Both the position numbers and the translations under genes were made by a program. A stretch of DNA of 4,570 nucleotides from Escherichia phage ECO95 1-6-1: sequence record OR845286.1; one strand, written 5' to 3'. Numbering within the stretch: the first letter of the stretch is position 1; each line of letters begins with the position of its first letter. Below are positions 1-1,765 of this stretch, in pieces. The notes beneath the pieces were generated by a model. That model did not search any database. It was not told the DNA's origin and saw only the letters and a list, made by a program, of their open reading frames with translations.

Positions 1-1765
1 CGTCAATAGAGGCCTTAACCCCCATTTCCGTTAATCTGGTGAGTATAGCGACGCTTTGCTCTGGCTTGTTCATCGCCGTGGTTTCGGTGATTTCCAGAAT
101 CAATAAATCGGGACGGATACTGTGTCGGGCCAGGCTCCGCGTAATGGTGTCCACAAGCCCGGGCTGCTCAAATTGTAAGGCGGACAGATTTACCGCCACT
201 GACCATAAGGCGTATCCCTGTAAGTGCCACTCGCGGAGCTGTCGACACGCCTCGTCTATCACCCAGCTACCGATAGTGACGATAAGACCCGTTTTTTCCG
301 CCAGCGGTAAAAACTGGTCAGGATTCAGTACGCCTTGTTTTGGATGATACCAGCGCAACAGGGCCTCAAATCCTACAATAGGGCCGGCAGGAGCCTGAAA
401 TTTAGGCTGATACACCAGCCTGAGCTCTTGTCTTTCCAGCGCCAGCCACAGGTCATTCATTAGCTGAAGTTGGGTTTGCGCCAGCATATTCATTGATGGC
501 TGAAAGAAATGGTATCCGTTACGCCCTGTATGCTTCGTGTGGTACATCGCGGCATCGGCGTTGAACATCAGTTCCCGTTCGTTTTTTCCGTCCAGCGGAT
601 AGAGCGCTATTCCCACGCTAAGGGTGACGACCAGTTCATACGGATCTATCGTAAAGGGCGCATCTATCGAATGTACCAGCGCGCTGGCAAGGGAAGCCGC
701 TTCGTCAGGCGCGCTGACTTCTGCAAGCAGCACAAATTCGTCGCCGCCAATCCGCGCCAGGGTAAACTGACCGCTCAGCGGGTGGTTCAGACGATGCGTG
801 ACCGCTACCAGTAGCTTATCGCCAATATCATGACCATAAGCGTCATTAACGGCTTTAAAGCCATCCAGATCCATAAACAGTAGCGCGAAAGACGTGCCTT
901 CCCGATTCGCTTTGCTGATGGCCTGTTCCAGACGATCCTCAAGGAGTACCCGGTTTGGTAAACGGGTGAGCGTATCATGCAGCGCCAACTGCGCCAGTTC
1001 CTGGTTCGCCTGCGCCAGTGAAGAGGCAAGTAGTGCGGTACGGGCCTGAAGCCGGGCGTCAAATAAAGAAACCAGCAGAGTAATGCCCAGGATAGTCAGC
1101 GCGACCACGCTGACAAGAACAGCCAGCCAGTTGCTATCGACGCCACGATGCTCCATCGGCCAGTTTTGGGGAAAGTGTGCGGCCTTCATACCGGCGTAAT
1201 GCATGCCGGCGATAGCTATCCCCATTAATACCGCGGCGCCTGCTCGCCTCAGGGCGACATCTGTTCCCTCATGACGCAGGCGGAACGTGAGCCACAGCGC
1301 GCCGCAGGACGCCAGTAGCGCGATAATGATAGAGAGGGCAACCCACGCGCTATTCCAGACGATAATGGAAGCAAATTGCAGCGCCGCCATCCCGGTATAA
1401 TGCATTGCGCTGATGCCCAGTCCCATCACCAGCGCGCCCGGCAGTAAACGGCGCAGGCGCAGTTTTTCAGCGCTGACCAGCCATAGCGCAAACAGGGAGG
1501 AGCCGATCGCGATCAGCATGGAGAGGCCGGTGAGGAACGGATCGAAGCGCATGTTCATCGCGTGATCCATCGCCAGCATCCCGACAAAATGCATCGCCCA
1601 AATACCGACGCCCAGCGCGAAGCCGCCGCCCATTAGCCATATTCTGGCGTTTGATCGGGCGCTTCCGGCTACGCGTCCGGCCATATTTAATGCGGTATAG
1701 GACGCAAAAATAGCGACAGCAAATGAAACCGCCACAAGGATGTGGTTGTACTCACTAACCGGCAT
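1..1765 (-). CDS. MHYT-GGDEF-EAL membrane signalling protein (putative c-di-GMP cyclase/phosphodiesterase), partial: 588 codons visible, C-terminal part of EAL domain lies beyond window start
   Basis: Hand translation of minus strand from ATG at 1765..1763 (in-frame TGA 6 nt upstream) gives 588 codons with no stop to position 2. Three MHYT motifs in predicted TM helices (AMHFVGM, codon 58 = 1592..1594; AMHYTGM; GMHYAGM). GGDEF motif RIGGDEF verified in frame at 734..748 (revcomp GGCGGCGACGAATTT). EAL motif FEALLR verified at 359..367. Translation ends ...GVKASID, where EAL domains typically continue DDFGTG. Not in ORF track because no in-window stop. Confidence 0.88.
   Translation of the reverse strand, partial: MPVSEYNHILVAVSFAVAIFASYTALNMAGRVAGSARSNARIWLMGGGFALGVGIWAMHFVGMLAMDHAMNMRFDPFLTGLSMLIAIGSSLFALWLVSAEKLRLRRLLPGALVMGLGISAMHYTGMAALQFASIIVWNSAWVALSIIIALLASCGALWLTFRLRHEGTDVALRRAGAAVLMGIAIAGMHYAGMKAAHFPQNWPMEHRGVDSNWLAVLVSVVALTILGITLLVSLFDARLQARTALLASSLAQANQELAQLALHDTLTRLPNRVLLEDRLEQAISKANREGTSFALLFMDLDGFKAVNDAYGHDIGDKLLVAVTHRLNHPLSGQFTLARIGGDEFVLLAEVSAPDEAASLASALVHSIDAPFTIDPYELVVTLSVGIALYPLDGKNERELMFNADAAMYHTKHTGRNGYHFFQPSMNMLAQTQLQLMNDLWLALERQELRLVYQPKFQAPAGPIVGFEALLRWYHPKQGVLNPDQFLPLAEKTGLIVTIGSWVIDEACRQLREWHLQGYALWSVAVNLSALQFEQPGLVDTITRSLARHSIRPDLLILEITETTAMNKPEQSVAILTRLTEMGVKASID

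Follow-up and report, generated by a model that had tools for sequence, protein, structure and literature searches.

A 4,570-nucleotide stretch of sequence record OR845286.1 (Escherichia phage ECO95 1-6-1), here called the window, carries at its left end a 588-codon open frame that is very probably the Salmonella enterica orthologue of STM3388, a catalytically competent MHYT-GGDEF-EAL enzyme of cyclic di-GMP (c-di-GMP). The open frame is confirmed as real and lies far beyond chance. It belongs to an orthologue group that is already known and characterised, and nothing about it is new in kind. The role of this group in csgD expression and biofilm formation has been published; the gene recovered here is a real one that stop-to-stop listing of open reading frames (ORFs) loses at a window edge.

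Open frame and identification

The gene occupies the following part of the window:

1..1765 (frame 1765..2), minus strand: STM3388-type MHYT-GGDEF-EAL gene, from stop-free translation and protein identity

Minus-strand translation of positions 1765..2 yields 588 codons and zero stops. The start codon is the ATG at 1765-1763, and a TGA in frame two codons upstream makes a longer N-terminus impossible. The visible part corresponds to codons 1-588 of 699, with the 3′ 111 codons lying past the window start. An earlier reading of this DNA, made from its letters without database searches (the sequence-only reading), had called this the largest gene in the window, a 588-codon minus-strand frame without a stop. 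Both statements held: the 1,764-base frame is the longest coding stretch present, and machine translation of 2-1765 revealed neither stop nor frameshift. The same reading had described the frame as absent from the ORF track, with three spurious ORFs in its place, and over the span the list has three ORFs, and no more, with a length of 60 amino acids or above (39-347, plus; 509-814, plus; 805-1062, minus). The list omits the 588-codon frame because no stop lies inside the window. The gene's product matches database proteins with 100% identity, and the three ORFs listed within it are therefore shadow ORFs.

A protein search matched all 588 residues of the translation, with 100% identity, to Salmonella enterica proteins of 699 residues. 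Protein P0001 (699 amino acids) has zero differences over residues 1-588, and P0005 has one. At the DNA level, window bases 1-3147 are 99.6% identical to Salmonella contig L002. Two Salmonella contigs encoding an identical or near-identical protein (L002 and L083) share the order accB, accC, yhdT, panF, prmA, dusB, fis, yhdJ, yhdU, the MHYT gene, envR, acrE, acrF, which places the gene between yhdU and envR. Published tables assign STM3385 to fis and STM3390 to acrE; the gene is third after fis and second before acrE and is therefore STM3388. Published descriptions give STM3388 an MHYT-MHYT-GGDEF-EAL architecture, and the residues mutated in published work coincide with motifs in the window protein, D342 being the D of GGDEF and E467 the E of EAL. 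Slot number, architecture and these two residues all agree with the Salmonella STM3388 type proposed from sequence alone.

The two Salmonella protein clusters that were looked up carry generic names without any STM locus tag. Several UniRef entries in clusters P0001 and P0026 name the 699-amino-acid protein "Anti-FlhC(2)FlhD(4) factor YdiV". This name is at odds with an MHYT-GGDEF-EAL architecture and is apparently a misannotation that has been propagated.

Domain architecture

Domains were identified by a Pfam-A profile search with gathering cut-offs of 21 bits for MHYT, 23.8 bits for GGDEF and 31.3 bits for EAL. Conservation was assessed in a homologue set of at least 80 loci from a scan of one genome per species, with no Salmonella among the matches listed; counts out of 80 refer to the homologues listed from this set. 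All three profiles matched far above their cut-offs, in agreement with the MHYT-GGDEF-EAL architecture proposed earlier. The features within the protein are as follows:

1070..1765, minus strand (residues 1-232): MHYT integral-membrane sensor domain and seventh transmembrane helix, from Pfam and hydropathy
1577..1594, minus strand (residues 58-63): first MHxxGM motif, MHFVGM, from sequence
1388..1405, minus strand (residues 121-126): second MHxxGM motif, MHYTGM, from sequence
1187..1204, minus strand (residues 188-193): third MHxxGM motif, MHYAGM, from sequence
518..985, minus strand (residues 261-416): GGDEF diguanylate cyclase domain, from Pfam
734..748, minus strand (residues 340-344): GGDEF active-site motif, from sequence
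2..454, minus strand (residues 438-588): EAL phosphodiesterase domain, its first two thirds, from Pfam; the window edge cuts the rest
359..367, minus strand (residues 467-469): EAL motif, which with the following L and R forms EALLR at 467-471, from sequence

The MHYT profile (PF03707) matches in four stretches (E = 3.1e-46, 155.6 bits). Three MHYT motifs had been claimed for this domain; the three motif positions are there, but the literal letters MHYT occur in one alone (121-126). All homologues (80/80) share M, H, G and M of the first and second motifs. In the third motif all share M, H, Y and the final M, and 78/80 keep the G. Hydropathy predicts seven helices at approximately residues 8-26, 48-66, 81-99, 111-129, 142-160, 170-193 and 214-232, the fourth being weaker (hydropathy 1.36), and the MHxxGM motifs are located in predicted helices 2, 4 and 6. 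This matches the MHYT-family layout of six helices plus a seventh ahead of the output domain. The lysine plus arginine counts of the loops alternate 0/3/1/4/0/2/2. A topology with the N-terminus out and the C-terminal catalytic domains in the cytoplasm would fit, as a hydropathy estimate and not the output of a trained predictor or a structure.

The GGDEF profile (PF00990) is covered from position 1 to 160 of 161 (E = 1.2e-43, 149.1 bits), and TIGR00254 also matches this domain (134 bits, cut-off 37.4). The canonical motif RIGGDEF spans residues 338-344, and GGDEF is invariant in 80/80 homologues. The DxDxFKxxND metal- and GTP-binding segment is present as DLDGFKAVND at residues 299-308.

The EAL profile (PF00563) matches with E = 2.6e-36 and 125.6 bits over positions 3-152 of 236, coverage stopping at 152 where the window edge cuts the domain. 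Of the catalytic residues, those in its first half are present (EALLR 467-471, N526, E558, E561 and D588, the last being the leading D of DDFGTG) and invariant in 80/80 homologues. Those of the second half lie outside the window; full-length P0001 has DDFGTGYSS, KID, EGVE and LQG there, and these residues are conserved in 77-80 of the 80 homologues. The sequence-only reading had stated that both catalytic motifs are intact. This is directly visible for GGDEF and EALLR, but the DDFGTG, K, EGVE and Q elements of the EAL site are beyond base 1.

Missing I-site

The RxxD allosteric I-site is found five residues before GGDEF in many members of the family and is dispensable for catalysis. It is missing from the window protein, as had been noted earlier: residues 331-334 (window 763-774, minus strand) read SGQF where aligned MucR of Pseudomonas aeruginosa has RDVD. 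The sole RxxD in the visible protein is RGVD at residues 207-210, within the membrane domain. Among the matches listed, the I-site occurs in 35/47 homologues below 60% identity and in 2/34 at 60% identity or above (the query counted). The position is replaced by [KS]G[QH][YF] in the latter group. As judged from these alignments, the enterobacterial branch of the MHYT-GGDEF-EAL family is without the I-site, whereas distant MucR-like relatives mostly keep it.

Activity and proposed mechanism

Published genetics describe STM3388 as active in biofilm control. Expression of the wild-type protein promotes CsgD and the rdar morphotype, which is a curli and cellulose biofilm (PMC5289004). The D342A variant slightly suppresses rdar and CsgD, with loss of csgD activation, and E467A slightly promotes them (PMC5289004). 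Deletion of STM3388 gives higher csgD early in growth and lower csgD later (PMC5289004). The authors concluded that STM3388 is bifunctional in vivo, with the cyclase as main activity and the phosphodiesterase as minor; the net activity is that of the cyclase at later growth stages, and the phosphodiesterase is visible early and in D342A (PMC5289004). A Salmonella census lists STM3388 as a diguanylate cyclase, and in other papers it is one of four cyclases with additive effects on csgD. The sequence evidence is compatible with a bifunctional enzyme, with catalytic residues that are near-invariant among the 80 homologues.

Several points weigh against reading the frame as an intact, active STM3388 orthologue. 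The assignment was made through gene slot, architecture and mutant residue numbers rather than through alignment to the LT2 entry. The last 111 codons, which hold half of the EAL active site, are outside the window, and intactness there is deduced from proteins with an identical prefix. The mutant study of STM3388 had no protein-level controls (PMC5289004). The strain's gene could also be a pseudogene broken in its unseen 3′ third, given that 588/699 codons are visible, that STY3568 of S. Typhi is reported to be truncated at residue N526, and that shorter variants of 489-663 amino acids were found among Salmonella entries. N526 is intact in the window gene, however, and all 588 codons are read without stop or frameshift. 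The visible part is also identical to full-length 699-amino-acid proteins from a 90%-identity cluster of 1,434 member sequences, and a pseudogene is hardly credible.

A different reading would make the protein mainly a phosphodiesterase, or a trigger enzyme like NbdA of P. aeruginosa, with GGDEF as a regulatory or GTP-sensing module. Its best partial matches in NCBIfam are phosphodiesterase equivalogs (DibA, 364 bits; DosP, 273 bits; PRK10060, 261 bits), NbdA has the identical domain order and is a phosphodiesterase, and both the slight suppression of csgD by D342A and the raised early csgD of the deletion would agree. These scores are nevertheless far under the respective cut-offs of 980, 857 and 782 bits. 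NbdA has a degenerate AGDEF, unlike the canonical GGDEF found here and across the homologues, promotion of csgD and rdar by wild-type STM3388 requires D342, and the census entry is for a cyclase. A predominantly phosphodiesterase function is thus unlikely, and the catalytically competent STM3388 orthologue with both activities remains the preferred reading. Assignment to any one NCBIfam equivalog (DibA, DosP or others) was rejected; none reached its cut-off, and the matches reflect the shared GGDEF-EAL module only.

The STM3388 orthologue would be a seven-helix inner-membrane protein in which a helical linker connects an N-terminal MHYT domain with a GGDEF cyclase and an EAL phosphodiesterase. 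The MHYT domain may adjust the balance between cyclase and phosphodiesterase according to a membrane-accessible signal. If CoxC and MucR (the latter responding to nitrate/nitric oxide) are a guide, this signal could be a small gas ligand on copper held by the invariant Met and His residues. The cyclase would be free of c-di-GMP feedback inhibition at the I-site, because RxxD is absent. The MHYT domain of CoxC from Afipia senses carbon monoxide (CO) and requires copper. A change of the second-motif His in MucR is described, with reference to Wang et al. 2015, as abolishing the nitrate response. Weighing against a gas signal, the NbdA authors now term the NbdA signal unknown. The MHYT domain's activity is likewise termed unknown in a 2022 review. 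We consider it possible but doubtful that copper held by Met and His senses nitric oxide (NO), O2, CO or nitrate-derived NO, as in the inflamed gut, and flips STM3388 between cyclase and phosphodiesterase, with an I-site-less cyclase under sensor control alone and no product feedback. If true, such a gas-driven mode flip would explain the growth-phase-dependent sign change of the STM3388 effect on csgD.

Genomic slot and history

The slot that holds the gene is defined upstream by yhdU:

1916..2107, minus strand: yhdU (DUF2556), from Pfam (E = 4.3e-36); matches E. coli yhdU

In E. coli, yhdU is followed by acrS (envR) after a 2-bp gap. In Salmonella, envR is found immediately downstream of the MHYT gene in convergent orientation. 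The sequence-only reading had placed the gene after yhdU, where E. coli carries envR; the E. coli order was right, but envR is not replaced in Salmonella. Window bases 1920-4570 match all 5,426 complete E. coli genomes at approximately 84%. Bases 1-1915 have no match in those 5,426 genomes, distant blastn sensitivity included.

Among the loci listed, Enterobacter, Leclercia and Silvania carry, in the same orientation, orthologues with 74-76% identity that are flanked by yhdU and envR-acrE-acrF. For the Kosakonia and Phytobacter orthologues, only the fis/yhdU side of the slot was confirmed. Among the matches listed, Erwinia, Pantoea, Pseudomonas, Ralstonia and Burkholderia have more distant full-length homologues (54-69% identity) in other genomic settings. 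The description of the gene as lineage-specific thus applies relative to E. coli, but not beyond it, given the syntenic orthologues in Enterobacter, Leclercia and Silvania.

Acquisition by Salmonella through horizontal transfer between yhdU and envR would account for the absence of the gene from 5,426/5,426 complete E. coli genomes, for the abutment of yhdU and acrS there, and for the drop in protein-search identity from 93% within Salmonella to 77% in the next genera. Against this, the slot fis-yhdU-gene-envR-acrE-acrF is kept in Enterobacter, Leclercia and Silvania, and its fis/yhdU side matches in Kosakonia and Phytobacter. Divergence of the orthologues is similar to that of their neighbours (YhdU, 66-85%; AcrE, 75-78%; EnvR, 56-62%). 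The guanine plus cytosine (GC) content of 55.5% and third-position GC (GC3) of 62% are unremarkable next to dusB (53% and 57%), and no integrase, repeats or tRNA lie beside the gene. A Salmonella-specific gain is highly unlikely on this evidence. It is more likely that the gene is ancestral to the slot and was lost in Escherichia. As a by-product of the analysis, slot synteny across Enterobacteriaceae genera, taken with absence from complete E. coli, points to this loss.

Two neighbouring genes were also examined. The adenine DNA methyltransferase gene yhdJ (window 2163-3053) has no match in loci L003-L019 and L034, which come from Enterobacter, Leclercia, Silvania, Kosakonia and Phytobacter; there, fis is directly followed by yhdU. 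By this comparison it is yhdJ, not the MHYT gene, that is restricted to Salmonella and Escherichia in the neighbourhood. The dusB gene (window 3688-4570, minus strand) loses its 5′ end to the window and is listed as 290 amino acids from an internal ATG. Salmonella dusB encodes 321 amino acids, and the TIGR00737 match begins at profile position 30.

Spacer upstream of the gene

The spacer between yhdU and the gene is 150 bp long with 38% GC, and it contains one candidate element:

1809..1836, minus strand: candidate promoter, TTGAGG at 1836-1831, 16-nt spacer, TG at 1817-1816 and TACTGT at 1814-1809, from conservation

In an alignment of eight genera, TTGAG(G)-16 nt-TG-A-TA(A/C)TGT is the most conserved stretch of the spacer, with TGATA-TGTC-C and most of TTGAG invariant. 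The conserved block at 1836-1809 is likely to be a −35 box and extended −10 promoter, from which the gene would have its own transcription within the 150-bp spacer. Against this, a consensus promoter scan called nothing in the yhdU-gene spacer; the candidate is a block of conserved sequence and not a mapped start site. A terminator-like hairpin at 1824-1798 (minus strand) was considered and rejected as a terminator. Such sites occur no more often than in shuffled sequences (8 compared with 4.8 ± 2.5), folding of the spacer is just slightly above shuffles (z = −1.55), and the hairpin overlaps the promoter-like block. The block was read as a promoter and not a terminator because hairpins are at chance frequency and folding is unremarkable. 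An Rfam search (E up to 1) gave no match near the gene; its two sub-threshold matches are both in the fis-yhdJ spacer.

At 1772-1780 (minus strand), 6 nt 5′ of the start codon, lies a mini-ORF of two codons, ATG AGC TAA. Of the genera aligned, 6/8 retain it, as ATG AGT TGA elsewhere, and its ATG is absent in two Enterobacter species with TCGAG.

Probable scar in the fis-yhdJ spacer

The spacer between fis and yhdJ is 312 bp in the window, compared with 85 bp in two other Salmonella contigs. The extra sequence, within window 3070-3380, is 233 bp and is also absent from E. coli. Two copies of the last fis codons and terminator, 82% alike, lie at 3070-3147 and 3303-3380 and are separated by a 155-bp segment of 26.5% GC; this segment and the second, diverged copy make up the 233 bp. 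Sequence matching the segment with up to 100% identity occurs in 19 E. coli genomes, where it lies immediately upstream of an integrase gene. Strain ET670 has a 15.8-kb phage-like island between yhdJ and fis, with the integrase at the yhdJ-side end. Its products are an integrase, AlpA, an antirepressor and proteins of capsid, portal and terminase type; no tail genes are annotated in it. The repeat CTGTATAAACATNTGTATAAACA is found near both ends of the ET670 island, and the window switches from the left to the right island copy at this repeat. A switch between the repeat copies therefore suggests the scar of an island with its interior deleted, and the 233-bp insertion looks like such a scar of a phage-like island. 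A matching attachment region is present in a 16.5-kb induced prophage record. The scar form was found in none of the complete E. coli genomes.

The conjugative Klebsiella pneumoniae plasmid pK15-KPC (locus L085, NZ_MK433207.1) has an envR-RND efflux segment that adjoins the integrase-bearing island described above. Between the efflux segment and the island, this plasmid has neither yhdU nor yhdJ nor an MHYT gene.

Comparison with known systems

The window gene shares with STM3388 of S. Typhimurium its species, the yhdU-envR slot, a length of 699 amino acids (as seen in P0001, which has the identical prefix), the architecture and the D342/E467 numbering. The alleles differ: compared with P0026, the representative of the largest Salmonella cluster, the window protein differs at 7/588 positions, including G290 and A305, which points to origin in another serovar. 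A published S. Typhi comparison implies N290 and T305 in Typhimurium, the same as in P0026.

Outside the enterics, the nearest characterised homologue is MucR (PA1727). The closest solved structure is the MucR GGDEF-EAL module 5m3c (E = 3e-116, residues 263-683), and the structure of the MucR EAL domain alone, 5m1t, matches with E = 3e-105. MucR is likewise an MHYT-GGDEF-EAL membrane protein; it has three MHxxGM motifs, its GGDEF and EAL motifs are canonical, and it acts as both cyclase and phosphodiesterase. It differs in keeping the I-site, in an output of alginate synthesis and dispersal where that of STM3388 is CsgD, and in genomic context; full-length Pseudomonas homologues are 55-58% identical.

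NbdA (PA3311) combines MHYT, GGDEF-like and EAL domains, and its EAL phosphodiesterase is active. Its motif is the degenerate AGDEF, and cyclase activity is absent; the window protein has the canonical motif. CoxC and CoxH of Afipia carboxidovorans have, by description, the same kind of MHYT membrane domain, and CoxC is the sole MHYT protein with an experimentally shown ligand. Their output is a LytTR DNA-binding domain and not a pair of c-di-GMP enzymes.

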